32,000 bases of DNA from Candidatus Saccharimonadota bacterium (GTDB lineage: Bacteria; Patescibacteriota; Saccharimonadia; Saccharimonadales; Saccharimonadaceae), in contig JBDSDX010000001.1 of NCBI GenBank assembly GCA_039920285.1, positions 120,001-152,000 on the forward strand. Reading direction: 5' to 3'. A program made the translations under genes and the position numbers. Below the pieces are notes generated by a model, which saw only the letters and a program-made list of their open reading frames with translations, searched no databases and was not told the origin of the DNA. Shown here piece by piece: positions 2,630-20,247 of the stretch; positions within the stretch are counted from its first letter, which is position 1; every line of letters begins with the position of its first letter.

Positions 2630-2638
2630 TGCTATAAT
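2630..2638 (+). promoter_or_regulatory. Extended -10 promoter (TGcTATAAT) for pilin-like gene P1
   Basis: tgctataat lies 32 nt upstream of the ATG at 2671. GAGGA (2661-2665) serves as a Shine-Dalgarno sequence 5 nt before the ATG. Confidence 0.55.
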
Positions 2639-2670
2639 GTAAGTATAGTTATCTAATATTGAGGAACGAC

Positions 2671-3078
2671 ATGCGCAAGGTAATAAAAACAATTCAACCA
2701 ATTCTGTGGGCGATTGTTTTTGTGGCCGTTTCGGCACTTGGTATTAGTAGTAGCGTCTCTGCATACAGCATTCAAGAAGGAGTAAACGCCGCACGCGGTA
2801 CCAATCAACCGAGCGAACTCTTCGGTGCTGGTGGTGTTATCACTACTGTGACAAACACACTTTTGTTCATCGTTGGTGCCCTCAGCGTCATCATGATTAT
2901 TTTCGGCGGCCTCCGCTATGTTGTCTCTGGTGGTAACTCAACAGCCGTATCAGCCGCAAAAAACACTATCCTCTACGCGATTGTAGGGCTCGTTATCGCT
3001 TTCTTAGCTTTTGCCGCGGTGAACTTTATCCTTGGTAATCTTGAGCCCGGTACTGGCGCTGGATATACCAACATCTAA
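2671..3078 (+). CDS. T4SS pilin-like small membrane protein (VirB2/TrbC-type), paralog P1
   Basis: I prefer the ATG at 2671 preceded by GAGGA; the ORF track started at the TTG at 2659. It has a signal peptide ending SVSA|YS. Two C-terminal TM helices flank a short polar loop (LLFIVGALSVIMIIFGGLRYVVSGGNSTAVSAAKNTILYAIVGLVIAFLAFAAVNFILG). This architecture is shared with the five ORFs at 4610-6688. Confidence 0.7.
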   Translation: MRKVIKTIQPILWAIVFVAVSALGISSSVSAYSIQEGVNAARGTNQPSELFGAGGVITTVTNTLLFIVGALSVIMIIFGGLRYVVSGGNSTAVSAAKNTILYAIVGLVIAFLAFAAVNFILGNLEPGTGAGYTNI

Positions 3079-3099
3079 CATACCCTTGTCATAAAAAGA

Positions 3100-3124
3100 G
3101 GCGACCGTGAAGGTCGTCACTTTT
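3100..3124 (+). terminator. Rho-independent terminator after P1
   Basis: Stem ggcgacc / ggtcgtc (one G-U pair), loop gtgaa, followed by ac-tttt. Confidence 0.6.
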
Positions 3125-3127
3125 ATA

Positions 3128-3215
3128 TGGCGGAGGGGGAGAGATTCGAACTCTCGGTGAGTTGCCCCACTCCGGTTTTCAAGACCGGTGCACTAAACCA
3201 CTATGCGACCCCTCC
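3128..3215 (-). tRNA. tRNA-Ser (anticodon UGA), CCA encoded
   Basis: 88-nt reverse complement: GGAGGGG ... CCGGT CTTGAAA ACCGG, a long variable arm, then GAGAG TTCGAAT CTCTC CCCCTCC G CCA. The anticodon loop is CT-TGA-AA. Confidence 0.9.
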
Positions 3216-3256
3216 ATCGGGTCTACAACTTGGCTATTTTAACAGATGAGGGACAA

Positions 3257-3919
3257 TCAGTCGAGAGGTTGTCGAGCCAACGCTCCAATCCAAATCTGGC
3301 GCGCCCCAGCGTTATAGAGTAACCGACTCGCATGATCGATCGTTGATCCAGTCGTAATCACATCATCAATAATCAGATAGGGGAGGGTCGGATCAAGCCG
3401 TGAGGTTATGCGAAAAGCTGATTGTGCCTGCACGAGTCGTTTCGAACGACTCGCAAAGTGCTGTGTAGCCGTATTCCCTCGTTCTAAAACCCTTTGGATA
3501 GGAAAACCACTTATCAATGACAGTGATCGAGTAATTAACCCGATGTGATCATATCCTCGCTCCCGAATATGCGCTGGCGTCGTCGGAATTGGGACTAATA
3601 CCGTGTTCTTAGGAAGCGTGGGTAATCGGGCATAGAGAAGCTGGGCCAAATCTACCCCTGTTGCACGTTTATTTTGAAATTTAAAATCGTCAATCAACAC
3701 ACGTAACGGTCCGTGACGTATACCCACAATCCAGGCTTGTTCGTAGCGCATTTTATGGTCTAAACAGACGTTTTTTTCAGTAGCTCGTTGACAGAGAATA
3801 CATTCAGAAAACACCGTTTCTATGATGTCGTTTTTACAATCATTGCATACAGTCGTACCCATTTTAAGGCACCCAGAACAGAGGTGTGGAGCTATATACT
3901 CAAGCAGTTTATCAATCAT
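3257..3919 (-). CDS. comFC: ComF family protein (ComFC-type phosphoribosyltransferase-fold competence protein)
   Basis: N-terminal Cys clusters (CSGC...CNDCKND...CILC) and the C-terminal PRTase motif LIIDDVITTGST match typical ComFC architecture. Confidence 0.8.
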   Translation of the reverse strand: MIDKLLEYIAPHLCSGCLKMGTTVCNDCKNDIIETVFSECILCQRATEKNVCLDHKMRYEQAWIVGIRHGPLRVLIDDFKFQNKRATGVDLAQLLYARLPTLPKNTVLVPIPTTPAHIRERGYDHIGLITRSLSLISGFPIQRVLERGNTATQHFASRSKRLVQAQSAFRITSRLDPTLPYLIIDDVITTGSTIDHASRLLYNAGARQIWIGALARQPLD

Positions 3920-3950
3920 TGTGTTTTTTACGTTTCGGACCCCTATGTGG

Positions 3951-4025: not shown

Positions 4026-4490
4026 ATGGCCCGCAAACAAAACGAAGATTTACTAATTGAAGATGAATTGGCTGCAGCTTTTTTGAGCGACGACGACCTT
4101 TCATCAACTGACGCACCCGCGCCAGTAACGACTGACGACAGTTGGGATGACAGCGAAGAAGAATTTCCTGGTCAACTCGCCGTTGACGTTTATGAAACCG
4201 ACGAAAAGCTCGTCGTTAAAGCTCGCACCGCAGGTGTGAACAAAGAAGAGCTCGACGTCAGCATCAGTGATGGCATCCTGACTATCAGCGGAACGCTGAG
4301 TAGCGGTGATGACACTGACGCAACCAACTGGCACATCCAAGAATGTTACTGGGGAGAGTTCAGCCGAACACTCGCACTTCCAGTCAGCGTTAGGGAAGAC
4401 GAAGTTGAAGCAGTCTTGAAAGATGGTGTCCTAACAGTCACTTTCACCAAGATCAAACAAGAACAAGCAAAGAAGATCCAAGTCCAATAA
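4026..4490 (+). CDS. Hsp20/alpha-crystallin family small heat-shock protein
   Basis: Alpha-crystallin domain pattern: QLAVDVYETDEKLVVKARTAGVNKEELDVSISDGILTISG...FSRTLALPVSVREDEVEAVLKDGVLTVTFTK. I chose the start at 4026 (MARKQNE...) because GTGGAGG precedes it. The listed 3822 start would overlap comFC and the promoter. Confidence 0.85.
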   Translation: MARKQNEDLLIEDELAAAFLSDDDLSSTDAPAPVTTDDSWDDSEEEFPGQLAVDVYETDEKLVVKARTAGVNKEELDVSISDGILTISGTLSSGDDTDATNWHIQECYWGEFSRTLALPVSVREDEVEAVLKDGVLTVTFTKIKQEQAKKIQVQ

Positions 4491-4509
4491 GACTTCCTTC
4501 TTAGTACAA

Positions 4510-4552: not shown

Positions 4553-4590
4553 CAAAAATAAAATATCCCGGAACTAACCGGGATATTTTT
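4553..4590 (-). terminator. Rho-independent terminator after pilin-like gene P2
   Basis: Stem aaatatcccgg / ccgggatattt, loop aactaa, with T-runs on both strands. Confidence 0.75.
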
Positions 4591-4609: not shown

Positions 4610-5020
4610 CTATGCGCCTGGGGTGATAGCGCCGAGTACCCAGTTGACGATTGCGAAGGCCAAGAAGGCAACAACGAGACCAATCAATGCGTACATAATA
4701 GTGCTTTTCGCCGCAGTCACTGCTGTGCTGTCGCCAGCTGAGATAGTGTAGCGGATACCACCAACGATCAGCATAATAACGCTGATTGCACCGATAACGA
4801 ACAACAGTACGTTCACAACAGTGGTGAAGATTGAAGTCTCACCGAAGAGTGTGGTTGGTGTGTTGTTACCCTGGGCACAGTTCACACCGCTTCCAGCTGA
4901 TAAATCACTTGTGTTACACGCCGCACCTACTGCAGGGGCAAGAGGGCTCACCACAGCAACGAGTGCTAGGGCTGATCCGACGATCAGGGTCTTGATCGCG
5001 TTCTTTGTTACTATTTTCAT
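4610..5020 (-). CDS. T4SS pilin-like small membrane protein, paralog P2
   Basis: Signal peptide ending AVGA|AC, a Cys pair in the mature N-terminus, and a C-terminal core (LLFVIGAISVIMLIVGGIRYTISAGDSTAVTAAKSTIMYALIGLVVAFLAFAIVNWVLG) closely matching P1. Confidence 0.7.
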   Translation of the reverse strand: MKIVTKNAIKTLIVGSALALVAVVSPLAPAVGAACNTSDLSAGSGVNCAQGNNTPTTLFGETSIFTTVVNVLLFVIGAISVIMLIVGGIRYTISAGDSTAVTAAKSTIMYALIGLVVAFLAFAIVNWVLGAITPGA

Positions 5021-5096: not shown

Positions 5097-5477
5097 TTAA
5101 ACAAACTGCGTGATGACCCAGTTGACGATTGCAAACGCCAGGAAGGCGATGACAAGCCCCGCAACAGCGTACGTCAGTGTATCTTTAGCTCGTTTAATAC
5201 GGCTCGAATCACCAGTCGACGTTGTATACATAATACCGGCAACGATAATCATAATGACCGACAGAGCACCGACAACAAAGAGAAGAACATTCACCACTTG
5301 TGTAATAGTGGTTGAGATATTATCATTTTTGTCTTTACAGACAGCTGATCCGGAGTTGTTTGCACACGCACCTTGTAGTGGGTCAACATTAATCGCGCTT
5401 GTCGCTGGAACAAGTGCCAGACTAAGCCCAAGGACGACCATGACGCCCATAATAAGTTGTTTTATACGTTGTTTCAT
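5097..5477 (-). CDS. T4SS pilin-like small membrane protein, paralog P3
   Basis: Signal peptide ending ATSA|IN, the Cys pair GACANNSGSAVC, and the core LLFVVGALSVIMIIVAGIMYTTSTGDSSRIKRAKDTLTYAVAGLVIAFLAFAIVNWV. Its start directly abuts the P4 stop. Confidence 0.7.
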   Translation of the reverse strand: MKQRIKQLIMGVMVVLGLSLALVPATSAINVDPLQGACANNSGSAVCKDKNDNISTTITQVVNVLLFVVGALSVIMIIVAGIMYTTSTGDSSRIKRAKDTLTYAVAGLVIAFLAFAIVNWVITQFV

Positions 5478-5780
5478 TTAAAATCTCCCAATCACGAAGT
5501 TAGTAATAGCAAATGCTGACAGAATAATAACTAAGCCTGCGATAGCGTAGAGTATTAGGCCCTTAGCTTTAGTGAGCTTGCCCGCATCACCTGCAGAAGT
5601 AGCGTACGAAATACCAGCAACGATAATGACAATCACCGCAATGGTACCGCCGACAAAATAGGCGAGATTAAGTCCATTTTGAAGGAGTTCGTCACCCGTG
5701 GTAGTAGGGAGGTTCTGAACATCTCCCGGTCCCGTACCCTGGGTAAGTTTTTGTGCAAATTGTACCAAAAAATAATACAT
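5478..5780 (-). CDS. T4SS pilin-like small membrane protein, paralog P4 (no obvious signal peptide)
   Basis: Core YFVGGTIAVIVIIVAGISYATSAGDAGKLTKAKGLILYAIAGLVIILSAFAITNFVIG is homologous to P1-P3. The N-terminus MYYFLVQFAQKLTQGTGPGD lacks a classical h-region and AxA site. Confidence 0.6.
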   Translation of the reverse strand: MYYFLVQFAQKLTQGTGPGDVQNLPTTTGDELLQNGLNLAYFVGGTIAVIVIIVAGISYATSAGDAGKLTKAKGLILYAIAGLVIILSAFAITNFVIGRF

Positions 5781-5784: not shown

Positions 5785-6261
5785 TTATCCGTTAATCAGC
5801 TTAAATATTAAGTTAGTCACACCAATTGCCGACATTGAAATTGCCAAGCCAATCACCGCATGAAGAATGGTGAGTCGAGCTTTTTCGATCTGCGCAGGAA
5901 CACTTCCGCCTGTGAGGTATTGGAAACCTCCAAACAATACGAAGAAGAGGGCAACATATCCCACCAAGAAGAGGGCGATCTCGATAACATTCAATACAAT
6001 ACGCCAAATGAAGGTGCTGAGACGCGCGCCCGAATCGGCACCGAGTCTTGGATCACTCGGTGACCATATCTCACAGCTAGCGCCTGCGCCATCTGTCAAA
6101 CCTCGATACCATACTGGCATACCAAGGATACGATTCTCACACCCAGGGGCGGCGGCAAACGTTGTCTGCGGAACAGCGACTGTCATCACTGGAGCAGCGA
6201 TGAAAACAGCAAATGCGAGAGTAATAAATAATTTTTTAAGTAATTTCGTTTTTATAATCAT
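5785..6261 (-). CDS. T4SS pilin-like small membrane protein, paralog P5 (divergent)
   Basis: I prefer the ATG at 6261 (MIIKTKLLKK...), 1 nt after the P6 stop; the track's 6273 start is a TTG. It has a signal peptide ending TFAAA|PGC and a Cys pair. The two-TM core is LFLVGYVALFFVLFGGFQYLTGGSVPAQIEKARLTILHAVIGLAISMSAIGVTNLIF. Confidence 0.6.
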   Translation of the reverse strand: MIIKTKLLKKLFITLAFAVFIAAPVMTVAVPQTTFAAAPGCENRILGMPVWYRGLTDGAGASCEIWSPSDPRLGADSGARLSTFIWRIVLNVIEIALFLVGYVALFFVLFGGFQYLTGGSVPAQIEKARLTILHAVIGLAISMSAIGVTNLIFKLING

Positions 6262-6262
6262 A

Positions 6263-6688
6263 TTAATTAGCAAATAGTCCGCCTGGTATTAAGAAGTTAA
6301 GCAACGAATACATCAACGCGTACGCAATAACACCAATTACTATATTAGTAATGATCTGCATAGCCTTCTTAACCTGTTCCGGACTGCCTCCTGCCGACGT
6401 ATACATAATAGACGCATAGACGATACCCGCAACCGTCACAATACCAACGCCAGCGGTTAGGATGTTGATAATAAGGAGTAAGATGCCCCAAGCACCAGTT
6501 CCCTCAACACCGCCCGTACCATCTTGAGTACAGCTAATGACCCCTGTTTCAACACCCCCACAACAGTTCGTCTGGGCTGAAGGAACACAGGTCGCGCCAA
6601 CACTCGCAGGGATAGCGATAAATGACGCCAATCCGATAATTAAAGTAGCGCCAACGATGAACTGTTTTACTTTTTGTTTTATGTTCAT
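6263..6688 (-). CDS. T4SS pilin-like small membrane protein, paralog P6 (divergent, 4 Cys)
   Basis: Signal peptide ending SVGA|TC, four Cys residues (TCVPSAQTNCCGGVETGVISC), and the core ILTAGVGIVTVAGIVYASIMYTSAGGSPEQVKKAMQIITNIVIGVIAYALMYSLLNFL. Confidence 0.6.
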   Translation of the reverse strand: MNIKQKVKQFIVGATLIIGLASFIAIPASVGATCVPSAQTNCCGGVETGVISCTQDGTGGVEGTGAWGILLLIINILTAGVGIVTVAGIVYASIMYTSAGGSPEQVKKAMQIITNIVIGVIAYALMYSLLNFLIPGGLFAN

Positions 6689-6752
6689 AACTATCTATAA
6701 GATACAACGAAGTCGACCAAGAGGCAAGTAGTATCTCACAAGCGTAAGGGTA

Positions 6753-6781
6753 TTGCATTTTATCACTTTTTGTGGTACAAT
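6753..6781 (+). promoter_or_regulatory. Sigma70-type promoter heading the plus-strand T4SS-like operon (TTGCAT-17-TGgTACAAT)
   Basis: ttgcat at 6753-6758, a 17-nt spacer, tacaat at 6776-6781, and TG at 6773-6774. This places the first two in-frame ATGs of the listed 6753 ORF inside the promoter. Confidence 0.6.
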
Positions 6782-6839
6782 GACATCAAACAATCAAAGA
6801 TGCCAATACTATTATTCCAAAGGATATATAACCATCACT

Positions 6840-7718
6840 ATGATCAACTCTGAAAAAACCAGTAATGAAGCTCTCGGAAACAACAAGAATATTCTTCGTT
6901 CTCTTATAAGTACCGTCCAAGCGGGTGAACTTATTTCAGCTATTAAATCAAAGGCTGAAGCAAGTAAGCACCTTGGTGTAAAAGTTGGTGTTGCTGGACT
7001 TGTTGTTGTCGGCCTTGCTGGTTGTACAACTCACGCTCCTGATGGCGACAACACTGTCTGGACACCAAGTCCAACTGAAAGTAGCGCTCCAACCACAAAT
7101 GCGACTCCTGATTTTTCACCAAAAGGCGAGATCCCTTCTCAGTACGCCAATCTCGCATCTGCAAACCCGACGGATCTTTCAGAACCTGACCAATTAATTT
7201 ATTCGAGTTGGCTCGAGCAAAACGCTGTTGCGTTTGATGCGCGATACGACCGTGTATTTGGTGGTGAAGCAACTCCTTTACCAACTGTTTCAGTCAATAA
7301 TACCGCCGTTGAAATCATAGCCCTTTATAATAACGACCTTCGTATGGCTGAGTCTTTTAGCAAAAACGGTGACGGTGTCACTCAAGATGATGATGCTACA
7401 ACAAAAGAGCTCTTAGCACTTCATGATTCTCCAAATGAATTTATGGACAAAATTGTCTCTGGTCTTGAAGACAACATGCTCGGTGATAGTAAGGCAATGA
7501 GTGTTGATCAACTTTCACTTGCAAACAAGTACCCAGACGTTTCTCAAAGCCAAATTACCTCAGAACACCTTACTACCAACTCTGATGGCAGTAAATCAAT
7601 GTACATAAACTACGTAGATAATGACGGAAACAAACAATACCGCGTATTTAACTTCAAGCAATCTGTTGACTTCAACGGTACAGCCGACGCTGGTGACAAG
7701 TGGGTTCGAGCTAACTAA
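6840..7718 (+). CDS. Hypothetical lipobox/membrane-anchored extracellular protein (first gene of T4SS-like operon)
   Basis: 6840 is the first in-frame start codon downstream of the predicted promoter. The hydrophobic stretch VGVAGLVVVGLAGC carries a lipobox-like LAGC (7014-7025). The remainder is polar, Ser/Thr/Asp-rich and has no motif I recognise. Confidence 0.55.
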   Translation: MINSEKTSNEALGNNKNILRSLISTVQAGELISAIKSKAEASKHLGVKVGVAGLVVVGLAGCTTHAPDGDNTVWTPSPTESSAPTTNATPDFSPKGEIPSQYANLASANPTDLSEPDQLIYSSWLEQNAVAFDARYDRVFGGEATPLPTVSVNNTAVEIIALYNNDLRMAESFSKNGDGVTQDDDATTKELLALHDSPNEFMDKIVSGLEDNMLGDSKAMSVDQLSLANKYPDVSQSQITSEHLTTNSDGSKSMYINYVDNDGNKQYRVFNFKQSVDFNGTADAGDKWVRAN

Positions 7719-7785
7719 AGAGCTTTTAACACCCCCATTACCACGCTTTTTAATTAACTCCTCTTATGCTTAAATAAGGGGAGTT

Positions 7786-10700
7786 ATGAATAGGCGGCTT
7801 TTAAAGAAATCGTTATTGCTCCGGCTTTTTGTTGCCCCTATGATTGTGGCGATGATTATTTCATCAGGTTTCATCGGTGCACTTAATCAAGCAAATGCCG
7901 CACTAAAAGCGACCGCGATGACTCCTGAGGAGAAAATCGAATCAGCACTCCTCTATAGATCAGTTGGTATTTGTTTGAAGAATGCTGGATTGAGAGACGG
8001 TGATGGCGTGTCTCTCTCTCGTATCAAAGAATCAAATGCTAAAATTGGTGCTTGGTTCAACGATCGTGCAAATGGCAAAGAGGGCGTCGCCCCTATTGGT
8101 GCTTATATGCGCGACACCGTCCAGAAACTACCAGGCGTTGGTGATGACTACAAACTTGACTGTGACCAACCGGAATTCATCCTTAAAGCCCTCAACTTAT
8201 GGAAACCTGGTGAAAATGGGGCGGACAATGGCCTGACACTCCTCTGTAATGCTGGCTTTGTTCGCACAAACCACAAAGATGATACACCCGCATCATGTAT
8301 TGCTGGGACGGGTGACCTCGAACGAAAGGCTGACTACAGTAACTTCAATACAGTGTACGGAGCACAGGGTAACGACAAGAGTGCTGGTCTATATGAGAGT
8401 TATATTGGAGGTCTCATTTACAACGCTGGTGGCTCAACCAACCCTATTGATGGCTGGAACTCGGTCGATTGGTACTGGTACTATACAAAGACATTCAACT
8501 GGAGCTGTGGCTACGGCAAAATGAAGAGCTCGCAAGCACTTAAATCCGAAGCTGAGGCAGGGGGAGGTGATAAAGCTTATAATATATGGAAAGCTCAGAA
8601 CGATGGAACAGTAACTAAGAGCCAATGGTATGTCGGCTTACTTGCCAAGACTGAGTCAGTTATTGTTCGGCCAAACGACGCAAGGACAAATCAAGACTAT
8701 ACAAAAACTTGTGAATTTATAGCTGGGCAAATAAATCGTTTTGCCCAAGATTATGCGACCTACAGTCTAAATAAAGTAGTGACCGCAAACTGTACAGCTA
8801 AGGGCTACAAAACACCCGACCTCGTGCCTTGTATCAATGGTGGTATCAACAGAAATAGTGACGGAACAATAAATGCACTGTACTGTGCAGACACCTACAA
8901 AACTGACCCTGCCTTAGCTGCCTGTAAAGCAGGTGCCACAACTAATGTTTCAGGCTCTGCCGAGGAAGCAGCCTCTACAACCGGTGTTGACAAGCCAGGC
9001 ACAGCCGACCAACCTTGTGAAATCGATGGAGCGTTGGGTTGGGTTATATGTCCGGCGATCCGATTCTTAGCAGGTGTCAGTGACGGGGTATTTACCTTCC
9101 TTGCTGATAGTCTTCTCAAGGTTGATCCAAAAATCTTAGCTAGCGGCACCGCTAACCCAACGTATAATGCCTGGATTATTATGCGCAATGTCGCTAACGT
9201 TGCCTTCGTTATTGTGTTCTTAATTATTATCTTCTCCCAATTGACCGGTGCAGGTATTACAAACTATGGTGTAAAGAAAATGCTGCCAAGGCTCGTCATT
9301 GCGGCCATATTAGTGAATCTGTCTTATTTTGTGTGTCAAATCGCAGTAGATCTTTCCAATATCTTAGGTTATTCCGTGAAAGGAGCCCTTGATGCGATAG
9401 GGGAAAATATCGCCAGTGTTAATGCGGTCGTAGGACAGACCAATGCTTCAAACCCCGACTTCGTTGGTATGACAAACAGTGCACTTGGACAGGCAGGTTC
9501 AGTGCTCCTGCTTCTCTCTATTCTCATACCAATCATGATAGCGGGGCTTATTGCAATTATTATCATCGTGTTTATGTTAATTGGACGACAAGCGATTCTT
9601 GTTATGCTAATCGTTATATCACCGCTTGCATTCGTCGCATTCCTATTACCAAACACACAAAACTTATTCACTCAGTGGCGTAAAATTTTTACGACGCTTC
9701 TCATGATGTTTCCGATTATATCGGCAGTGTTTGGTCTCTCAAGCTTAACGTCAACTATCCTTGCGGGTGCATTTACAGAAAACGCAGATGGGGGAGTTCC
9801 TGGTTTTATTAATCAAATCCTCGCAGCGGGCGTTCTCGTTCTACCACTCTTCCTTGTCCCAATGATCCTCAAAAAATCACTTGATGGTATTGGTTCGATT
9901 GGTGCCGCAATGAATGCCGCCGGCAACAAGGCTCGTAGTGGTGCAAACGCTGTAAAGGGTGCCGGAAAGAGCCTCGCAAAGACCGGAGCCAATGCTGGTC
10001 TCGGACGTTTAGCGAATACGAAGTTTGGTGCATCAAGAGGTGGGCGAATACTGGGTGGTATTGCTTCAGGTAAAGGTCGTCGTGGTTTTAGCGCAATGGG
10101 TGAGGCGCATGAAGCACAGACTAATAAAAATATTCAATCGCAATGGCAACGAGATGGCACCTATAACAACAGCGCAAAGCTTGAAAGTATCGCCAAAAGT
10201 AAGCCAAACTCGAGCGAAGGCCGAGCGGCTATGCACGCATTATCATCAAAGGGTGATGCGAACGAGCTTTCACGTGTTCGCCGCCATTTAGACTCAACGG
10301 GTAATACAGAAGGTATGAAAGCATTACAGCGTGCCACCGATTCAAACTTCTCAGCTCTTAAAGCCAAAAACCCGAGTGCGGTTCAGCCTATGAAACACAG
10401 CGACTGGGGCAATCTCAAAGCTGTTGAAACCTTTGGTATGAAGGATGAAGCAATTACTGAAGGTATCGCATCAAGCCCACAATTTGCACAAACCGTTAAG
10501 GCCGCGGCTCTTGATCCGCTCACTGCGAGAAACTACTCTGCCGATACTATTGCCTGGGCAAAGGGTGGCGTCCTTCCTGGTGGAGGTTCGACGAGTCCTG
10601 CTGGTCAAGCAAACCACAACGCCGCCGTTGCTGCTGGCATGAAATCGTCATCAGGCGGGCCTGCAAATATCCCAGGTGGAGGCAATCCTATTGTTACTCC

Positions 10701-11355: not shown

Positions 11356-11399
11356 CCACTCTTACCCTTTAATTCATATCTTGCTATACTATAAGCACT

Positions 11400-12329: not shown

Positions 12330-12366
12330 GTCGGAGACTAACCAGGAGTGGGACGTTCCATAAGTT

Positions 12367-13257: not shown

Positions 13258-15098
13258 TGGCACGAAAACCAACCGCAGCTGAAATTGCCAATCAACAACG
13301 CGCCAAAGAGCAAGCTGAAGTCGACCAAGCCTTTGCTAAGGGTGTCACCACTCTTCGTGATTTGATTGCACCAAGTAGTATTGAAATTACGAGTTCGTAT
13401 TTCCGCCTCGGAACCAAATATGGTCGTACGATTTATATCTACGGCTATCCTCGCCAGATTTACACTGGTTGGTTAAGTGGCCTCATTAATATTGATGAAG
13501 TTCTTGATGTCAGCATGTTCATCTATCCTGTCGACAGCCAAGTCGTCTTGAATAACTTGCGTAAAAAAGTAACGCAACTCGAAGCAAGCACGTCGATCAA
13601 TAACGAAAAAGGGAAGACCCGTGATCCTGGACTCGAAGCAGCTATTAACGATGCTGAAGAACTTCGTGACCAACTCCAAGTTGGCGCCGAGCGTTTCTTC
13701 CGTTACGGTCTGTATGTCACACTGTACGCCGATAGTGTTGAAGAGCTTGATTTCGTCCAACACAAAATTGAAACAATGTTCGGTCAGCAACTTGTCTTTA
13801 GCAAGGTAGCAAGTAGCCAACAGGAACAAGGCTTGAACAGTACTATTCCTCAAATGACTGATCAGCTTCAGATTCGTCGCAACATGAACACTGGCGCAAT
13901 CAGCACCAGCTTCCCATTCACGAGTGCCGACCTCACCCAAGATAAGGGAATTCTCTACGGCATCAACATGCACAACAATGGTCTGGTTATCTTCGACCGT
14001 TTTAGCCTCGAGAATGCCAATATGGTTGTCTTCGCGAAGTCTGGTGCAGGTAAATCATTTACTGTGAAGCTTGAAGCCCTCCGTAGCATGATGACTGGGA
14101 GTGAAGTGATCATCATTGACCCAGAAAATGAATACCAGAAGTTGTCTGATGCTGTCGGGGGAGCGTACATTCGCTTAAGTCTTAACTCGGCAACTCGTAT
14201 CAATCCATTTGATCTTCCTCGTGTGATTGATAATGATGAGGCTGACGACGCACTACGCGCCAACCTTGTGACACTACACGGACTATTCCGTCTCATGCTC
14301 GGTGGAACACAGGTTGCCAGTAATGGTGTCCCGATTTCATCACTCAATCCAGTTGAGGAAGCTGACCTCGACCAAGCTCTGATTGATACGTACGCACGTG
14401 TTGGTATTACCAGCGACCCACTGACACACAACTCGCCACCGCCAACCATTTCTGATCTTTACGATACCCTTCTTCATATGGGTGGAACTGGTCCTGGACT
14501 CGCACAGCGACTCCGTAAATATACGACAGGAACATTTGCTGGTATCTTTAGTCAACAATCAAATATCGACATTAATAACCCGATGGTTGTCTTTAATATT
14601 CGCGACCTTGAAGACGAACTGCGTCCAGTCGCAATGTATATTGTCTTGAGTCACATTTGGAACATTACCCGAACCGAGAAAAAGAAACGTATGCTGATCG
14701 TGGACGAGGCGTGGCAATTGATGAAATACGATGACTCGGCAAATTTCTTGTTTAGCCTCGCAAAGCGCGCTCGTAAATATTACCTTGGTCTCACCACCAT
14801 TACCCAAGACGTTGAAGACTTTATGGGAAGCAAAATGGGTCGTGCGATCGTTGCCAACAGTTCAATGCAACTTCTTTTGAAGCAATCTTCAAGTGCAGTT
14901 GATGTTCTGTCGGATGTCTTTAAACTCACTGAAGAAGAGAAAAAACGTCTGGCGAACTTCCCGGTCGGACAAGGACTCTTCTTCGCTGGACAAAACCATG
15001 TTCACATCCAAATCCAAGCCAGCCCAACCGAAGCACAGCTTATTACCACGAACCCCCAGATAGCAACTCAAAACCCCGACGGAACCTCGGGCGTATAG
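13257..15098 (+). CDS. virB4: VirB4-family T4SS ATPase (PrgJ/TrsE-like)
   Basis: Walker A AKSGAGKS (14034-14057) and Walker B MLIVDEA (14691-14711). Upstream is the VirB4-type region DLIAPSSIEI...GRTIYIYGYPRQIYTGWLSGL. Motifs IIDPENEY and TTITQDVEDF are typical of VirB4/TraC-class ATPases. Confidence 0.85.
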   Translation: MARKPTAAEIANQQRAKEQAEVDQAFAKGVTTLRDLIAPSSIEITSSYFRLGTKYGRTIYIYGYPRQIYTGWLSGLINIDEVLDVSMFIYPVDSQVVLNNLRKKVTQLEASTSINNEKGKTRDPGLEAAINDAEELRDQLQVGAERFFRYGLYVTLYADSVEELDFVQHKIETMFGQQLVFSKVASSQQEQGLNSTIPQMTDQLQIRRNMNTGAISTSFPFTSADLTQDKGILYGINMHNNGLVIFDRFSLENANMVVFAKSGAGKSFTVKLEALRSMMTGSEVIIIDPENEYQKLSDAVGGAYIRLSLNSATRINPFDLPRVIDNDEADDALRANLVTLHGLFRLMLGGTQVASNGVPISSLNPVEEADLDQALIDTYARVGITSDPLTHNSPPPTISDLYDTLLHMGGTGPGLAQRLRKYTTGTFAGIFSQQSNIDINNPMVVFNIRDLEDELRPVAMYIVLSHIWNITRTEKKKRMLIVDEAWQLMKYDDSANFLFSLAKRARKYYLGLTTITQDVEDFMGSKMGRAIVANSSMQLLLKQSSSAVDVLSDVFKLTEEEKKRLANFPVGQGLFFAGQNHVHIQIQASPTEAQLITTNPQIATQNPDGTSGV

Positions 15099-15117
15099 CG
15101 TATAATAGAGAGTAATT

Positions 15118-18100
15118 ATGGGGCCCCAAGACAACGACGAAAATAACCCAGGCCAACAAAATGCTGACAGAACGTTTGGCTCAGACTCGCGAGATCTTAG
15201 AGGTGCCGAGGATACCGGTAACTGGAAAACACGAGTAGGAGATACTGCAAGGGATGCTGCACAAGACGTCGCCAAAAAAGCTCTAAGAAAAACAGAAGGC
15301 GAAGTAGCGGAAAAGGTCGCGGCTAAAGCAGGAGCAAAAATGGCGACAAAACTGGCCGCTGGAGCAGCAACAGGGGTTGAAACGGCTGGTGTCGGAGCTG
15401 CTCTCGCTGTTGCTGATATTCTTCGAGATAAAGATACGCGCAATCTTCTTGCCAAAAAGATCCTCCCTGTTATTATTGGTCTCGTGATTCTCATAACCGG
15501 TGGTGCAATTGGCATTATTTTGACTGGTCTCCTCGCGCCAATTGCTTTTTTCGATACACTGTTTGATGATTTAAATGACCAAGTACCGGCGCTCGACATG
15601 CGTAATCAAGCAGCACTTAATAACATGGTACCGAACAACGTCAAGGCAGCAGCACTCGATACATGTAAGAGCTCTCCAGAATCAATCATCTGTCGTTCTA
15701 GGACGTTGTCTGAAACCCAAATCACACGACTTCAACGCGCCGGTATTGAGGTGAGTGGGGATAAATACGGAGATAGGCTATTACCAACATCATACACATT
15801 CAAAGATAAGTCGTACGATCCCAATGAATTTGCCAAAGCCGTTCAAAATGATGATACCTTACGACTCGCATACAAACGTGCTTTCAATATGAAGGTGTTG
15901 GGTTTTAGTGACGCTTCGTTTGTAGGCAACACGCTGACGCGTTTCGGTGGTTCAAAACAAGCACCAGATCTTCAGGGGAGTCATGAAGATAAAGTAAATC
16001 AACTTATTAACCGACAAAAGGCGAGTAACGCTGACGGATCTGCAACAGACAAAACTTCAACAATTCCTGCCGACGCTGTCTTTGTACCTGTAAAAACAAA
16101 TGATGACGGTACCCCGGCTGAAGGTACTACCTACACACTAAAAGGAAGTACGTCCGGTGAAGAGTTTACTCAGGCTGACGTCGATAAGGTTAATGCAGCT
16201 AAAACAACAACTCCTTCCGGTGACACTCCTCCGACTCAAATCGGCGATCTTATAATCGGAAGTGCCAGTGCTTTTGGTTACTGGGACCTTGCTTGCACAG
16301 TTAAAAGTATGGTGGCGGCGGCATCGTTGTCTGCAAAGGTCGCAAACCAATCGGCAATCGTGAATTATGTCCAACCAGTGGCGGCGCTCGCATATAAAGC
16401 AAAGGCAGGAGACATATCGGTGAGCGATAGTCAGGTACTCGCTGAATATTTCAACAAAACTGATAATCGAAAACAGATTGAGTCGCCGGCGGCGAGTTAT
16501 GAAAATGCGACTATTGATGGGACAACAATTAAACCGGAATCTGGAAGTAGTAAGCTGATCGATAACCCAAATTATGGGAAAACCGCACTGGATTCACCGT
16601 TATTTAAAATGTCTCTCAATGGTGGAAGTAACCCTGGTACGACCGTTGCTGATAGTCAGTATGGGCTCGGTGTCAGTGTGAAGTCATTATTTGGTGGCAC
16701 ATCGAGTGCCGCCTCGGATACGATTGATGCTCTCAATAACGTCGGAAGTACGATAGACGACGCAACCTGTGCGGTTGTGCAAAACCCTATTGTTCGAGGA
16801 GTTGGTCTTATCTTTGGTTTATCTGGTGGGTTAATTACAGGTGCCGGAACGCTCGCCATAAAACTTCCTGTCTTGATCAACCTCGCGAACGGTGCGGTGA
16901 CATTAAATAAAATTATTCAAAACGGCAAAGCTGGTGCGGTCATCCCAGATAACCTCAGTGATTCTCCAGCCGACCTCGGAACACTGAGTTGGAACTATGT
17001 CACTGCTGTGTCTGGTCAAGCAGCTCAAAATAGAGGCCTTACCGGTGGAAACGCTCAGGAAGTCTTGGCATACCAAAAACTTGGTGCACAAAGTAAATCA
17101 GATTATATCGCTATTGAACAACAAGACACCAGTCCGCTCGATGCAACAAGTAAATACTCATTCCTCGGATCCCTCCTTTTGACACTTTCAACTATGACAA
17201 CGTCGCAGTTTAGTGGAAGCTCTTCACTTCGCAATATAGCGGGTATTGTTGCAGGGAGTGCTGCCGCAATCGTAAAACCGGCGAATACGTATGCTGCCAC
17301 TATCGATCCGGGTCGATTCGAACACTGTGACGACGTTGCCTATTCAAATGTCGGCATCAGTCCAGATGTCGAATGTAATATTCGTTATGTTATGTCAGCA
17401 GAAGATCTCAACCTCGACACCTATGATGTTCAGAAGGCAATGGGAAGTAGTGCGTGTGGCGGAAATGCCTGTGTCGACACCCTCACCACAACGGGATATC
17501 CTGATGGGTACTCACCAGTCGACCCTACATCTGTTCAGAAGTTTGCTGATAGTTTTATAAAAGGAAGTGACCCAACACTCTATGCCGATCGATTGAGCTC
17601 TGGTGTATATGATAACGACTACGCCAAATTCCTTGATTTCTGTGCATACCGTGCGCTCCCATATGGACAAACCTATGACCTAACAGGCCTCGATGAGAAA
17701 TGGCAAACGGGTGAGATATGTAAAACTGCTGGTGCCCCCTACAGTTACTACCGTGTGTACACACTCGATAACACAGCTCTCGAAGCACGCGACAAAGTCT
17801 ATGATTTTGCATCATCTCCACAAGGTAGTTTAAGTACAGGACGCCCAGAAAATACTGATGACTATGGTAACGGCTGGATCCTCCGTAACGGTGTTGATTA
17901 CTCATCATTCCAGTGCGATCCTCGAACAACTGATGCTGGAAAATACACAAACCCCGATCGTGGCTATACGATTCGTGTTTGCGACACAAAAATAGCCGGA
18001 ATTAAAACGACAACCAACGCACTCGTTTCAACAAATTTCATGAATATGTATGAAGCGGCAAAGAAGGATGGTATTACATTCTTCCTAGCTGAAAGTCTTC

Positions 18101-18387
18101 GTAAAAATACAGATCAATATTACAGTGCTCAGTCGCGACACAGTATGGGTCTCGCGTTCGACCTTGGATCATCCCAAAACGGAAACGGAAGTTGGTGTTA
18201 TTCTGGTCCTGCTGGTGACCTTGGTGGGGCAATAGCTTGTCGTTCAAGGACTGGTGCGGCTGGTGATGCTGTTCGCTGGATGGATGCACATGCTGCCGAG
18301 TATGGATTCCAAAACCTCAACAACGAGCCATGGCACTGGTCAACTGGTGAATCTGGTGGTCAATTTAACACGAAGAAGTTGCAGTAA
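15118..18387 (+). CDS. Large membrane-anchored extracellular protein with C-terminal VanY/M15-type (LAS family) peptidoglycan peptidase domain
   Basis: 1089 aa. One TM helix lies near aa 115-150 (ILPVIIGLVILITGGAIGIILTGLLAPIAFF). The ~800-aa central region has no motif I recognise. The C-terminus carries SRHSMGLAFD (18133-18162; SxHxxGxAxD) and EPWHW (18325-18339; ExxH), which are the zinc ligand motifs of D-Ala-D-Ala carboxypeptidase VanY/M15 enzymes. Confidence 0.6.
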   Translation: MGPQDNDENNPGQQNADRTFGSDSRDLRGAEDTGNWKTRVGDTARDAAQDVAKKALRKTEGEVAEKVAAKAGAKMATKLAAGAATGVETAGVGAALAVADILRDKDTRNLLAKKILPVIIGLVILITGGAIGIILTGLLAPIAFFDTLFDDLNDQVPALDMRNQAALNNMVPNNVKAAALDTCKSSPESIICRSRTLSETQITRLQRAGIEVSGDKYGDRLLPTSYTFKDKSYDPNEFAKAVQNDDTLRLAYKRAFNMKVLGFSDASFVGNTLTRFGGSKQAPDLQGSHEDKVNQLINRQKASNADGSATDKTSTIPADAVFVPVKTNDDGTPAEGTTYTLKGSTSGEEFTQADVDKVNAAKTTTPSGDTPPTQIGDLIIGSASAFGYWDLACTVKSMVAAASLSAKVANQSAIVNYVQPVAALAYKAKAGDISVSDSQVLAEYFNKTDNRKQIESPAASYENATIDGTTIKPESGSSKLIDNPNYGKTALDSPLFKMSLNGGSNPGTTVADSQYGLGVSVKSLFGGTSSAASDTIDALNNVGSTIDDATCAVVQNPIVRGVGLIFGLSGGLITGAGTLAIKLPVLINLANGAVTLNKIIQNGKAGAVIPDNLSDSPADLGTLSWNYVTAVSGQAAQNRGLTGGNAQEVLAYQKLGAQSKSDYIAIEQQDTSPLDATSKYSFLGSLLLTLSTMTTSQFSGSSSLRNIAGIVAGSAAAIVKPANTYAATIDPGRFEHCDDVAYSNVGISPDVECNIRYVMSAEDLNLDTYDVQKAMGSSACGGNACVDTLTTTGYPDGYSPVDPTSVQKFADSFIKGSDPTLYADRLSSGVYDNDYAKFLDFCAYRALPYGQTYDLTGLDEKWQTGEICKTAGAPYSYYRVYTLDNTALEARDKVYDFASSPQGSLSTGRPENTDDYGNGWILRNGVDYSSFQCDPRTTDAGKYTNPDRGYTIRVCDTKIAGIKTTTNALVSTNFMNMYEAAKKDGITFFLAESLRKNTDQYYSAQSRHSMGLAFDLGSSQNGNGSWCYSGPAGDLGGAIACRSRTGAAGDAVRWMDAHAAEYGFQNLNNEPWHWSTGESGGQFNTKKLQ

Positions 18388-19622
18388 TGATATATCGTTC
18401 TACTTTTATTAAAAAGTCTATTAGTACTCGTGTCTTAGCGATTGCTATGATTTTCTTCGCATCGTTCATGAGCCAAAATGTTCCTGTCCAGGCTTTTGGT
18501 GAGTACGAAGACTACTACAGTCGTAATAATATTCTCTTGTACGATAAAAGTGCGCCAAGTTGTAGTGCTGGTGCAACAAAAACATCAGCGAGCACCGCTG
18601 GGACGACCAGTACAACTGAAGTGAAGGTAGAGAAGACCGCCAACACAGACACAATTTTTAAATTCCTTACCACAACCTCTTTTAGTTCTAACAATAGTAA
18701 ACCAATGTCCGATGCGCAGGCTGCAGCGGTTATGGGTAATATGAAAGCTGAGTCAGGGCTTCGTCCAGAAGCAGTTGAAGCAACCGATCGAGCTGATAAA
18801 GGCCACGGGCTTGTTCAGTGGACCTTCGGACGGTGGAACGGTGCTAATGGGTTATCACCATTCGCGAATTCAAAAGGTAAAGACTGGACTGATCTCACCA
18901 CGCAACTGCAATTCCTCCAAAAAGAACTTGAGAGTAGCGAAAAGAAAATTTTCAGTGATGCTGAGTGGAATGCAGCAAAAGAACCTTCCGTTGCTGCAGT
19001 TCGTTGGGAAGTTGTTTTCGAGCGCGCAAACCCAGATGTCGCACACAATGACGTTCGAGCTGGCGCTGCGGTGGCGTTTTATAAACTCTACGGTGGCACC
19101 TCGAGTGGTGCGGATTGTGCACCTTCAAGTGGTGTCGTCGCTGGGAGTCTCGTGAAGACAGCACTCTACTTCGCACTTGATGCTCCTGCCGATGATGGCA
19201 AATCAGAAAAAGCAGATGCTAAAATCACCTATCAAAATGAAAAGGCGACCTATAACCCAATTGGAGATTGGTCTGATTGTGGCGCCTACATTGCGACAGT
19301 TGTTATTGCGAGTGGTGTTGATAAAAATTATCCAAAACTTGGTGTCGGTAATCAGATTAATTACGTCCGCGCGCATCCTGAACTCTATCAGGTCGATGAA
19401 AATCCAACCGCTGAGAAATTGAAACCTGGTGATATTATGTATATTCCAGCCCACACTACTATGTACACTGGCGCTGACAAATATCCGTCAGCTGACGCCT
19501 CATGGCACGAACGCGTTCCGTCGGTACGAAGTTCAGGTAGCGCGCAGTGGATGATCTCAAACGGAGCAATTACGGCTCGATTTATTGGTAAAGTCGCTGG
19601 CGGTGGCGGAGGAGGTGTTTGA
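18387..19622 (+). CDS. Secreted bifunctional peptidoglycan hydrolase candidate (phage-tail-lysozyme-like domain plus NlpC/P60-like Cys/His domain); VirB1/PrgK analog
   Basis: The signal peptide ends VQA|FGE. AAAVMGNMKAESGLRPEAVE...GHGLVQWTFGRWNG...LTTQLQFLQKEL resembles the phage tail-tip lysozyme family. The C-terminal WSDCGAYIA (Cys codon 19278-19280) and PGDIMYIPAHTTMYTG (His codon 19452-19454) resemble NlpC/P60 DCSG and GD...H..Y.G motifs. The start overlaps the upstream stop as TAATG, and the protein ends in GGGGGGV. Confidence 0.6.
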   Translation: MIYRSTFIKKSISTRVLAIAMIFFASFMSQNVPVQAFGEYEDYYSRNNILLYDKSAPSCSAGATKTSASTAGTTSTTEVKVEKTANTDTIFKFLTTTSFSSNNSKPMSDAQAAAVMGNMKAESGLRPEAVEATDRADKGHGLVQWTFGRWNGANGLSPFANSKGKDWTDLTTQLQFLQKELESSEKKIFSDAEWNAAKEPSVAAVRWEVVFERANPDVAHNDVRAGAAVAFYKLYGGTSSGADCAPSSGVVAGSLVKTALYFALDAPADDGKSEKADAKITYQNEKATYNPIGDWSDCGAYIATVVIASGVDKNYPKLGVGNQINYVRAHPELYQVDENPTAEKLKPGDIMYIPAHTTMYTGADKYPSADASWHERVPSVRSSGSAQWMISNGAITARFIGKVAGGGGGGV

Positions 19623-19623
19623 T

Positions 19624-20247
19624 ATGGGACGACGTGGCATAATATTGATCATTCTAGCGTTTATTGTGGTAATTGTCGTTATCTCAGTAATTGCATTAAT
19701 TCCACGCGCGCATCTTGTGTTTTCGATTGCGCCGACCGAAGCAACAGTGTCTATCAATGGCAAGACTCAATCGGTGAAGAATCAGCAATCCATCACGGTT
19801 GCACCTGGAGAGTTAAAAATTATTGTTTCTCGTAACGATTTTGGTCCATACACAGAGACTGTCACAGTAAAAAATGGTCAAACTTACGAGGTTATTGGTG
19901 CACTTGATCCACAAACTGATGCGGCTAACAAACTCATGCAAACCCCAGAAGCAATGGAGGTACTTCAGCGTGTCACTGATAAAAAAATGCGGGCTGATAC
20001 TGGTAAAGTTACAAAAGAAAACCCACTTATCAATGATCTCCCAATCAATGATAAGTATTTCTCAATTATTGCTTGTGCTTCACGAAAATATCCAGATGAT
20101 CCACTCAAGATTGCTATTTGTATTAAGTTATATAACCCAGAAGCAAAACAATCAGCTCTGGATACAATTACAGGTCGTGGTTACAAACTAGCTGATTATG
20201 AAATTGTCATTATTGATTCAAGTTATCAACAAGAGAGTGGTGACTAG
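19624..20247 (+). CDS. Membrane-anchored PEGA-like domain protein (last gene of T4SS-like operon)
   Basis: I prefer the ATG at 19624 (MGRRGIILIILAFIVVIVVISVIAL...), 1 nt after the upstream TGA. The segment IAPTEATVSINGKTQ...VAPGELKIIVSRNDFGPYTETVTVKNGQTYEV resembles a PEGA domain. Confidence 0.5.
   Translation: MGRRGIILIILAFIVVIVVISVIALIPRAHLVFSIAPTEATVSINGKTQSVKNQQSITVAPGELKIIVSRNDFGPYTETVTVKNGQTYEVIGALDPQTDAANKLMQTPEAMEVLQRVTDKKMRADTGKVTKENPLINDLPINDKYFSIIACASRKYPDDPLKIAICIKLYNPEAKQSALDTITGRGYKLADYEIVIIDSSYQQESGD

Follow-up and report, generated by a model that had tools for sequence, protein, structure and literature searches.

The 32,000-nucleotide window that was analyzed in this study (positions 120,001 to 152,000 of contig JBDSDX010000001.1, assembly GCA_039920285.1) stems from a Candidatus Saccharimonadota bacterium and contains a locus for a type IV secretion system (T4SS), which extends from a detached pilin gene at 2659 to the end of a long operon at 20247. 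The locus is very probably a chromosomal, vertically inherited Saccharibacteria T4SS of the Patescibacteria clade and not a conjugative element. It is the orthologue of the gene cluster SEML1_0005-0019 of Southlakia epibionticum ML1, and SEML1_0003-0022 is matched nearly gene for gene. A first-pass annotation of the window had proposed a T4SS-like machine that is resident and non-conjugative and belongs to an epibiotic bacterium from the candidate phyla radiation (CPR), and this proposal gained support from the synteny in about 41 species, the lack of mobility genes in the window and the reachable flanks, and the essentiality of the ML1 genes. The locus, its odd composition, its origin-proximal site and both candidate functions have already been published, and thus the finding is correct and not new. 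The T4SS of the Saccharibacteria and the CPR belongs to a small set of machines that are known to be indispensable for epibiotic life in a very large and poorly understood bacterial radiation. The window adds a further well-assembled member, and its conservation map could help in choosing targets for experiments on host range and structure.

The larger part of the locus is formed by the main operon at 6840-20247 (+), in which eight co-directional genes follow each other over 13.4 kb in the order lipoprotein, extended VirB6, PrgI/VirB3, TrsD-like protein, VirB4, VanY protein of 1089 amino acids (aa), phage-tail lysozyme and PEGA protein. The distances between these genes are, in the same order, 67, 44, 37, -1, 19, -1 and 1 nucleotides (nt). 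The single co-directional operon of about 13.4 kb that had been annotated before was thus verified, with gaps from -1 to 67 nt. Three TAATG/1-nt junctions had been reported in addition, and these turned out to be two TAATG overlaps, at 13257 and 18387, and one 1-nt gap with the sequence TGAtATG at 19622/19624. The 1-nt TAATG overlap is a junction type that is commonly tied to translational coupling. The family scans also confirmed the positions of the six pilin-like genes, the VirB6-like giant, PrgI, VirB4 and the hydrolases.

The main operon is separated from a divergently transcribed pilin array by an intergenic region of 151 bp (6689-6839), which is the presumed site of both promoters. An extended -10-like motif, TGGTACAAT, is present in this region at 6774-6782; the promoter scan in its entirety was not above chance, with 23 motifs found and 26.8 expected.

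Conservation and residency of the locus

A scan of species-representative genomes with VirB4 yielded more than 550 relatives, and the best 80 of them, which are 84-96% identical to the VirB4 of the window, are almost all from metagenome-assembled genomes (MAGs) of Saccharibacteria/Saccharimonadales. Synteny was counted in 41 loci with full flanks, each from a different Saccharibacteria species. The gene order VirB6-PrgI-TrsD-VirB4 was present in 41/41 loci, dnaN/dnaA were located downstream in 40/41, and the pilin array was found upstream of the core wherever the flank covers it. The median identities to the window were 87.5% for VirB4, 79% for the N-terminal 100 aa of PrgI, 76.5% for DnaA, 73.6% for DnaN and 65.9% for RecF. 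The VirB4/PrgI/TrsD core is thus ultra-conserved, whereas the surface parts gave almost no detectable matches across the 41 loci. VirB4 (13257-15098) is more conserved than DnaA (22670-24055) and its site is fixed, which argues for a vertically inherited core machine and against a mobile element.

Pfam and NCBIfam family scans of all open reading frames (ORFs) of at least 100 aa did not reveal a type IV coupling protein (T4CP), a relaxase, a VirB11 or an integrase in the window. The T4CP models produced only cross-matches with E>0.01, and these were on VirB4 itself. Likewise, VirB5, VirB7, VirB9 and VirB10 had no family match in the window, and an LPXTG adhesin was not detected there. In the 6.4 kb past the right end no mobility genes were found, and O-antigen-type ABC transporter and sugar-modification genes are located there; the left flank of a close relative is likewise free of mobility genes and encodes a DUF4352 protein, a GDSL lipase and hypothetical proteins. 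The earlier statement that T4CP, relaxase, VirB11 and integrase are missing therefore holds for the window and the reachable flanks; in ML1 a VirD4-type homologue is encoded at a distant site.

A repeat search bore out that the locus has neither flanking direct repeats nor an oriT-like repeat: no att-like direct repeats beyond chance flank it, and no prominent oriT-like inverted repeat was detected. The repeats of the window are explained by pilin and tRNA paralogy plus short pairs at chance level. Two candidates for att sites were rejected. The first is a 21-nt direct repeat (19/21 identities) at 3500-3520 and 20016-20036; one copy is part of the coding sequence of comFC and the other of that of the PEGA gene, and several pairs of the same quality occur at other places. 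The second is a 36-nt stretch shared by two tRNA-Ser genes with 92% identity (2445-2480 and 3121-3156), which comprises the 3' ends and the adjacent downstream bases and represents tRNA paralogy.

These results bear on the alternative of a decayed or integrated conjugative element (ICE), the relaxase and T4CP of which were lost or lie just outside of the window. The left edge has three tRNA genes, and tRNA genes are typical sites of integration; the motor is of conjugative MPF_FATA origin, and the imperfect 21-nt repeat at 3500 and 20016 brackets most of the locus. Nevertheless, such an element is extremely improbable. The same site adjacent to recF-dnaN-dnaA is occupied in about 41 species with a VirB4 more conserved than DnaA, an integrase is lacking in the window, and the 21-nt repeat lies within two coding regions and is at chance level. 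Furthermore, the G+C content of the locus (0.43-0.52) is much like that of its flanks (0.38-0.47), and the flanks consist of housekeeping and cell-surface polysaccharide genes. Relaxases are also few in Patescibacteria, for which a survey counted only 109, in 103 genomes of its dataset (Quinonero-Coronel 2025, PMC12102498).

The PrgI/TrsD/VirB4 motor

The PrgI/VirB3-like protein (309 aa, 11400-12329, (+)) matched PF12666 with 47.3 bits, which is above the threshold. Its PrgI domain comprises aa 5-90 and contains two transmembrane (TM) helices, and it is followed by a Pro/Gln-rich extension of 210 aa. A BLASTP comparison with PrgI of pCF10 gave no signal. The next gene (12367-13257, (+)) encodes a TrsD-like protein of 296 aa, which represents a free-standing VirB4 N-terminal domain (NCBIfam VirB4_plasma, E 1.6e-6; TrsD, E 5.8e-6). 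It matches TrsD of pGO1 with E 2e-5, and its counterparts in relatives carry the TraC-like family PF26593. The third gene (13257-15098, (+)) encodes a short, TrsE-type VirB4 ATPase of 613 aa, which reached 378 bits with the CD1110 family model NF045971 (cut-off 325). It also matches P-loop_TraG and AAA_10 as well as the VirB4 structure 4ag5 of the PDB, the latter at E 5e-50, and both the Walker A motif AKSGAGKS and the Walker B motif MLIVDE, as read from the translation, are intact.

VirB4 had been described as apparently split, and this was accurate, because the two ORFs tile the full-length model. The 296-aa and the 613-aa protein cover positions 100-280 and 288-893, respectively, of VirB4_plasma, and positions 2-119 and 172-735 of the CD1110 model. 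In the unsplit PrgJ the VirB4 of the window aligns to residues 223-772 (27% identity over 578 aa), and the first ~190 residues of PrgJ are without a counterpart in this VirB4. The alignment with TrsE of pGO1 is end to end, 35-595 versus 36-626, with 24% identity. BLASTP of the TrsD-like protein against PrgJ found nothing, and their relation became visible only via profiles, TrsD of pGO1 and a natural fusion. In this fusion protein (P0248, 898 aa) a TrsD-like domain (aa 11-236) is joined to a CD1110-type VirB4 (aa 315-864), and it is thus a natural unsplit counterpart. A search of 1.84 billion representatives yielded 2,142 relatives of the 296-aa protein, and nearly all that were listed are free-standing, P0248 being the one fused to VirB4. 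The two-gene arrangement of TrsD and VirB4 with the 1-nt TAATG overlap is kept in related loci. A frameshift or decay as the source of the split gene was ruled out by this conserved arrangement and the TrsD/TrsE match in pGO1. Judged from the sequence comparisons, the split is the ancestral TrsD/TrsE arrangement.

The extended VirB6 and the lipoprotein

The gene at 7786-11355 (+) encodes a protein of 1189 aa, for which VirB6 core homology, the TM map and the composition of its segments point to an extended VirB6. An N-terminal signal/TM segment is followed by an ectodomain of 370 aa with 10 Cys (7882-8985), a core with five to six TM helices (8983-10155) and a C-terminal tail of 430 aa, which is rich in Ala/Ser/Gly/Thr (10063-11355). 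The whole protein did not match any Pfam family. The membrane core (aa 400-790) matched TrbL/VirB6 with 23.5 bits, slightly short of the cut-off of 25.9, at E 5.4e-5. The best and only plausible PDB match of the core was TrwI/VirB6 of R388, which was found with the single sequence and with a profile of 40 species at E 0.003-0.004. An AlphaFold model of the core (pLDDT, the predicted local distance difference test, 78) was compared with the PDB, and the top six structural matches were all TrwI/VirB6 chains, with a probability of 1.0 for four of them and target-normalised TM-scores of 0.41-0.49. In addition, homologues of the giant carry precomputed TrbL-type Pfam matches. The core profile gave no signal with the single sequence of PrgH of pCF10. 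On the basis of the concordant sequence and predicted fold signals the giant was accepted as an extended VirB6.

The first gene of the operon (6840-7718, (+)) encodes a hypervariable lipoprotein with the lipobox LAGC at aa 59-62. It is found at the position that SEML1_0012, which encodes an NTF2-like protein, has in ML1, and it did not match any Pfam or NCBIfam family. A membrane-anchored protein or lipoprotein of 144-417 aa is encoded at this position in 50/57 loci. In BLASTP, 44 of these 50 formed one similarity cluster, and an iterative hidden Markov model seeded on the lipoprotein of the window reached 26. The AlphaFold2 model of the lipoprotein, made with an alignment of three homologues only, had a pLDDT of 36 and was unusable. 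The profile of the lipoprotein family matched PDB entries (an SLT-domain protein, LpqN, others) via the signal or linker only, which was regarded as compositional, and hhalign gave no match between the family and PrgL of pCF10. The lipoprotein is a candidate for a VirB8-like component, with which its topology, its position and the NTF2-like nature of its positional equivalent in ML1 are in accordance. VirB8, VirB9 and VirB10 had all been noted as missing, and this applies to VirB9 and VirB10, the families of which were not detected in the window; for VirB8 the claim was too strict in view of this candidate.

In a comparison with the genome of the closest species (L001), nucleotide similarity was found for the pilins, for the VirB6 core and for PrgI-TrsD-VirB4. 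This similarity is lost in two islands, at 6800-9011 (the lipoprotein and the VirB6 ectodomain) and at 10115-11125 (the VirB6 tail). In three relatives (L001, L087 and L089) the identity to the window is 96-97% for VirB4 and 80-82% for the VirB6 core. The identities of the lipoprotein and the ectodomain are 58-59% and 68-69% in two of these relatives and ~29% and 23% in the third, while the VirB6 tail is 36-39% identical in all three alike. This drop in identity affects both sides of a gene boundary, an indication that the lipoprotein and the ectodomain co-evolve or recombine as a unit. By sequence comparison, the lipoprotein and the N-terminal ectodomain of VirB6 (6840-8985) look like one allelic cassette that spans the gene boundary. 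A description of this pattern was not found in the papers that were consulted.

Six pilin paralogues

Six genes encode VirB2-type pilins or a pilin-like protein, with pairwise identities of 20-56% (mean 31%), and five of them are above the Pfam cut-off of T4SS_pilin (PF18895), which is 26.6 bits. Pilin 1 (2659-3078, (+); PF18895 32.7 bits) has a signal peptide and two TM helices and is 49% identical to pilin 2. It is detached from the array and lies between two tRNA-Ser genes, and the same detachment was found in the relatives L004, L005, L007, L023, L038, L087 and L089. The array itself is located on the opposite strand and comprises pilin 2 (4610-5020, (-); 38.5 bits), pilin 3 (5097-5477, (-); 48.2 bits), pilin 4 (5478-5780, (-); 40.2 bits), pilin 5 (5785-6273, (-); 27.9 bits) and, as its first gene, pilin 6 (6263-6688, (-)). 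Pilin 3 also matched TrbC/VirB2 (PF04956) with 33.7 bits, again above the threshold; BLASTP of pilin 3 against TrsB of pGO1 gave no signal. Pilin 4 is a short form of 100 aa with two TM segments only. Unlike the other five it lacks an N-terminal signal peptide, and the site does not allow a longer ORF; a pilin gene of 312 bp is found at the same position in ML1. Pilin 5 has a long Cys-containing N-terminal insert. Pilin 6 is pilin-like, with a sub-threshold match to PF18895 (E 1.4e-3, 19.1 bits), and its topology is that of the other pilins. A positional orthologue of it is present in ~30/41 related loci, and in the rest the upstream flank is missing or diverged.

At the end of the array a terminator-like hairpin with a 12-bp stem and a T-run is found at 4560-4589 (-), which is a consensus match only. 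The window contains 25 terminator-like sites versus 17.3 +/- 4.2 in shuffled sequences, a modest excess.

Peptidoglycan hydrolases and the PEGA protein

The last three genes of the operon encode membrane-anchored or secreted proteins. The gene at 15118-18387 (+) encodes the membrane-anchored protein of 1089 aa with a C-terminal VanY domain (M15-type peptidase; PF02557 27.8 bits, aa 1004-1075) and a TM helix at aa 118-136. It is 69-75% identical in the closest relatives and ~24% elsewhere, and from its sequence it is presumed to be a wall hydrolase or an effector. The next gene (18387-19622, (+)) encodes a secreted VirB1/PrgK-type phage-tail-lysozyme protein (PF18013 Phage_lysozyme2, 93.8 bits), the lysozyme domain of which is common to PrgK of pCF10 (564-662, E 3e-4). 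The last gene of the operon (19624-20247, (+)) encodes a membrane-anchored PEGA-domain protein (PF08308 27.4 bits; TM helix at aa 6-24). Domain-wise Pfam searches with the ectodomain and the tail of VirB6, the middle of the VanY giant, the PrgI tail and the C-termini of the PEGA and the lysozyme protein did not give a match.

Proposed function of the machine

A model for the machine was derived from established T4SS biology, namely from the structure of R388, the VirB4-dependent dislocation of pilins and hydrolases of the VirB1/PrgK type. The motor of PrgI/VirB3, the TrsD-like VirB4 N-terminal domain and the short VirB4 was probably derived from monoderm MPF_FATA systems of the pGO1 type. The VirB4 hexamer would dock via the TrsD-like domain and PrgI on the platform of the extended VirB6 and would extract VirB2-type pilins from the membrane, i.e., the six paralogues, which would be supplied mainly by the divergently transcribed array. 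The pilins would be polymerised into a hollow pilus or conduit, which would pass through wall openings cut by the two peptidoglycan hydrolases that are encoded downstream. The fast-evolving lipoprotein, the ectodomain and tail of VirB6, the hydrolases, the PEGA protein and the pilins would face the host and would probably set host specificity. By orthology with ML1, the machine is predicted to be required for growth on the host. In ML1 nearly all genes of the cluster were essential for epibiotic growth in transposon sequencing (Tn-seq), including SEML1_0005 (PEGA), SEML1_0006 (lysozyme), SEML1_0007 and SEML1_0020 (hsp20), and comFC (SEML1_0021) and the gene for the NTF2-like protein were non-essential (Wang 2023, PMC10633639).

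By analogy with related systems, it is tentatively proposed that the conduit takes up host macromolecules or nucleic-acid-derived nutrients. The lean toward uptake is based on three points: these organisms are unable to synthesise nucleotides, ML1 can do without ComEC-dependent competence but not without its T4SS, and the VirB4-only relatives include importers. Cryo-electron tomography (cryo-ET) of the Saccharibacterium M. amalyticus has revealed a tube 8.6 nm wide and 61 nm long that leads from the parasite to its host, and a 2026 preprint on a cultivated parasite of the Minisyncoccota/Patescibacteria describes tubular structures, which are maybe T4SS pili, and the acquisition of host RNA. 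It is tempting to speculate that the exchangeable cassette of lipoprotein and ectodomain sets the host specificity of a pilus conduit that imports host macromolecules, a rather unlikely idea at present.

Several points weigh against this model. The essentiality was transferred by orthology from a member of another Saccharibacteria family. The VirB6 assignment rests on three signals that are individually weak (E ~1e-2 to 5e-5). A T4CP encoded elsewhere in the genome is conceivable and would, if functionally linked, change the picture of a minimal, VirB4-only machine. Furthermore, the composition is silent on the direction of transport, because VirB4-only systems include exporters (Ptl, Brucella VirB) as well as importers (ComB, Ced).

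The same machine could be an exporter, which delivers effectors or wall hydrolases that open the host or make it leaky, so that ordinary transporters can take up the nutrients. This is a real possibility, if a doubtful one. Export is the usual direction of a T4SS, and exporters without a T4CP are known, again Ptl and Brucella VirB. Both hydrolases of the operon have Sec-type N-termini and their ML1 orthologues are essential, and the fast evolution of hydrolases and surface parts is what would be expected of host-targeting factors. Effector delivery is also favoured or mentioned by the ML1 study (PMC10633639) and a 2024 PNAS perspective (PMC11665869). However, an effector candidate, a T4CP or a secretion signal could not be identified in the window, and the hydrolases may be mere assembly factors of the VirB1/PrgK type, in accordance with the lysozyme domain common to PrgK. 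The sequence itself does not separate export from import.

The six divergent pilins and the hypervariable surface proteins would also fit to adhesion and to variation of the host range by a pilus that serves for attachment or sensing only and does not transport any cargo, and the essentiality would then reflect host adhesion. Conjugative pili mainly attach (PMC12857230). Such a role is nevertheless improbable, as adhesion and motility of the Saccharibacteria are already served by type IV pili, and an extremely conserved VirB4/VirB6 translocon with dedicated hydrolases exceeds the needs of an adhesin. In addition, the structure seen between the cells of M. amalyticus and its host is a hollow conduit of 8.6 nm. 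Uptake through a conduit stays the tentatively preferred function of the machine.

comFC, the replication origin and other neighbours

The neighbours of the locus, i.e., recF, dnaN, dnaA, rpmH, rnpA, yidC, three tRNAs, hsp20 and comFC, were all confirmed. The left edge of the locus has the order tRNA-Arg, a 208-aa ORF, tRNA-Ser, pilin 1 and tRNA-Ser, according to the ORF listing and the family scans. An Rfam scan of the window found the three tRNAs and nothing else. The 208-aa ORF between tRNA-Arg and tRNA-Ser (1749-2375, (-)) did not match any Pfam family, and its NCBIfam match was at chance level.

Two further genes are embedded in the locus and conserved in related loci: comFC (3257-3919, (-); TIGR00201 comF, E 1e-24) and hsp20 (4029-4490, (+); PF00011, 69.8 bits), the latter being found at the same place in related loci and in ML1. 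comFC is probably a conserved neighbour and unlikely to be a component of the machine. Its presence had been taken as a pointer to ComB-like uptake, i.e., competence-related DNA uptake by the T4SS in cooperation with comFC. This explanation would be in accordance with ComB and Ced, which are T4SS-derived importers without T4CP or relaxase, with weak matches of VirB4 to CedB and CedD, and with T4SS loci of the ABY1 class, which co-localise with comF, recG and radA (PMC12102498). It lost weight with the ML1 results, and it is now very improbable. In ML1 transformation requires comEC, the deletion of which abolishes transformation and does not affect viability, and type IV pili are credited with competence (PMC12857230). 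The T4SS is essential in ML1, whereas comFC is not. Moreover, the match of VirB4 to CedB reached 45.6 bits versus a cut-off of 700 and that to CedD 28.6 versus 600, both far below, and the block hsp20-comFC-tRNA-Ser is a conserved neighbour on the opposite strand in this family.

The 3' end of the main operon is convergent with recF-dnaN-dnaA (-), beyond which rpmH-rnpA-yidC-jag (+) and then a glycosyltransferase/polysaccharide cluster follow. The region from recF to the dnaA-rpmH intergenic region (20244-24309, (-) for the genes) provides the context of the locus and includes the presumed oriC. The intergenic region contains three one-mismatch DnaA-box 9-mers within 116 bp (24100-24215), a cluster that is compatible with an oriC at this site. 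The number of DnaA boxes across the window was not significant (13 versus 8.05 +/- 2.9), and therefore the assignment of oriC is based on the gene order, i.e., on the dnaA-rpmH intergenic region.

Transcription of the 13.4-kb operon runs toward dnaA/oriC and is hence head-on to a fork that leaves the origin at ~24100-24300, while the pilin array and dnaA-dnaN-recF are read in the direction in which this fork moves; the ML1 tables give the same layout. The head-on orientation is inferred from the gene order, as the GC skew of the 32 kb is too noisy to confirm it. The orientation and the cassette described above are small additions to the literature of 2023-2025, and the cassette is a modest lead.

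A side observation concerns the polysaccharide cluster. It contains a pair of succinyl-CoA-ligase-like genes (28800-30723, (-); ATP-grasp_2/Ligase_CoA and CoA_binding/Ligase_CoA), which sits among glycosyltransferase genes, GtrA and, just past the window, the O-antigen-type ABC transporter genes. Such a setting is unusual for sucCD, and the organism is expected to lack a tricarboxylic acid cycle.

Comparison with known systems

The diderm VirB/Trw systems are nearest to the window in two components. The VirB6 core is nearest to TrwI of R388 in sequence and predicted fold, and the pilins match TrbC/VirB2 and T4SS_pilin. Both are nearer to diderm VirB6/VirB2 than to anything in pCF10, which has likewise been remarked in the survey of Patescibacteria (PMC12102498). 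In contrast to VirB/Trw, the cell is a monoderm, the VirB6 has large extra domains, and VirB5/7/9/10/11 were not detected in the window. ComB of H. pylori and the archaeal Ced system have a VirB4-type ATPase without T4CP, relaxase or VirB11, as has the window, in which an outer-membrane core of the ComB7/9/10 type is lacking (no VirB7/9/10 families).

The motor genes resemble those of conjugative plasmids of monoderm bacteria. In the trs region of pGO1/pSK41 the order VirB3 (TrsC), TrsD, short VirB4 (TrsE) is the same as in the window, and in both a wall hydrolase is encoded downstream. In contrast to the window, pGO1 has a T4CP (TrsK), a relaxase, a topoisomerase and a single-stranded DNA-binding protein, it is plasmid-borne, its VirB6 (TrsL) is small, and it has no array of six pilins; the identities are ~24%. 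The core of pCF10 has the order prgH (VirB6), prgI, prgJ (VirB4, CD1110), prgK (lysozyme) and prgL, of which prgH to prgK are collinear with VirB6-VirB3-VirB4-lysozyme of the window. PrgJ, however, is unsplit; in pCF10 the T4CP PcfC and a relaxase are encoded after this core, LPXTG adhesins are present and VirB2 pilins are absent, while the window is without the DNA-processing half. Thus, of the features of conjugative MPF_FATA systems the T4CP, the relaxase and oriT were not found in the window, and six VirB2-type pilins are present instead of adhesins. Likewise, the integrase and the att repeats of an ICE were not found, and the distribution of the locus is not patchy.

The closest characterized relative is the cluster of ML1. 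Wang 2023 (PMC10633639) described an "apparent T4SS (SEML1_0006-0019)", which resembles Gram-positive conjugative systems, contains pilin genes that are essential and is devoid of any recognisable coupling protein or relaxase, and suggested protein export or another role for it. The comparison with the window was made from the published tables, i.e., from gene orders and sizes. In ML1 the order is dnaA, dnaN, recF, an extra gene, PEGA, lysozyme, a 3342-bp gene, VirB4 (1839 bp), an 882-bp gene and PrgI, followed by two VirB6-like giants around an NTF2-like exported protein, six pilins, hsp20, comFC and tRNA-Ser. The sizes agree well: VirB4 has 612 aa in ML1 and 613 aa in the window, the TrsD-like protein ~293 and 296 aa, PrgI 300 and 309 aa, and the VanY giant ~1100 and 1089 aa, SEML1_0007 (3342 bp) being the counterpart of the latter by position and length. 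There are three differences. In ML1 two VirB6-like giants (0011, 0013) flank the NTF2-like protein, whereas the window has one giant with the lipoprotein ahead of it. Between recF and PEGA, ML1 carries an additional gene (0004), which the window lacks. The six pilin genes are contiguous in ML1, whereas in the window one of them lies beyond comFC and tRNA-Ser. ML1 also has a VirD4-type homologue, which is distant from virB4 and non-essential.

The same type of system was surveyed across the Patescibacteria (PMC12102498). In that survey VirB4 was MPF_FATA-related, TrsD was widespread, PrgI/VirB3 was present, and VirB6 was found mainly by a diderm profile rather than by PrgH. The VirB2 arrays had 2-11 genes with a mean identity of 25% and a maximum of 54%, compared to a mean of 31% and a maximum of 56% in the window. 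Hydrolases were noted downstream of virB4 in ML1, as was the proximity to dnaA/dnaN/rnpA/rpmH. VirD4-type homologues were present in 2,918 Patescibacteria genomes, with 148/5,713 near virB4. The authors argued for a gene-dosage effect and a possible import of DNA or other macromolecules. A FEMS review of 2025 (PMC12857230) makes the same points and remarks on the six divergent pilins, and in the PNAS perspective (PMC11665869) the role is called "completely unknown", with both effector delivery and ComB-like uptake mentioned. The genomic features of the Patescibacteria clade were found in the window, namely an MPF_FATA-type VirB4 (an affinity defined by profile and pairwise identity), an adjacent TrsD, PrgI and VirB6, a pilin array, a chromosomal and dnaA-proximal location, with neither relaxase nor T4CP in the window and the 6.4 kb to its right, and a Saccharimonadia host. 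There is no difference of substance between the window and the surveyed clade, to which the locus adds one more member, from a soil/freshwater-type Saccharimonadales MAG.

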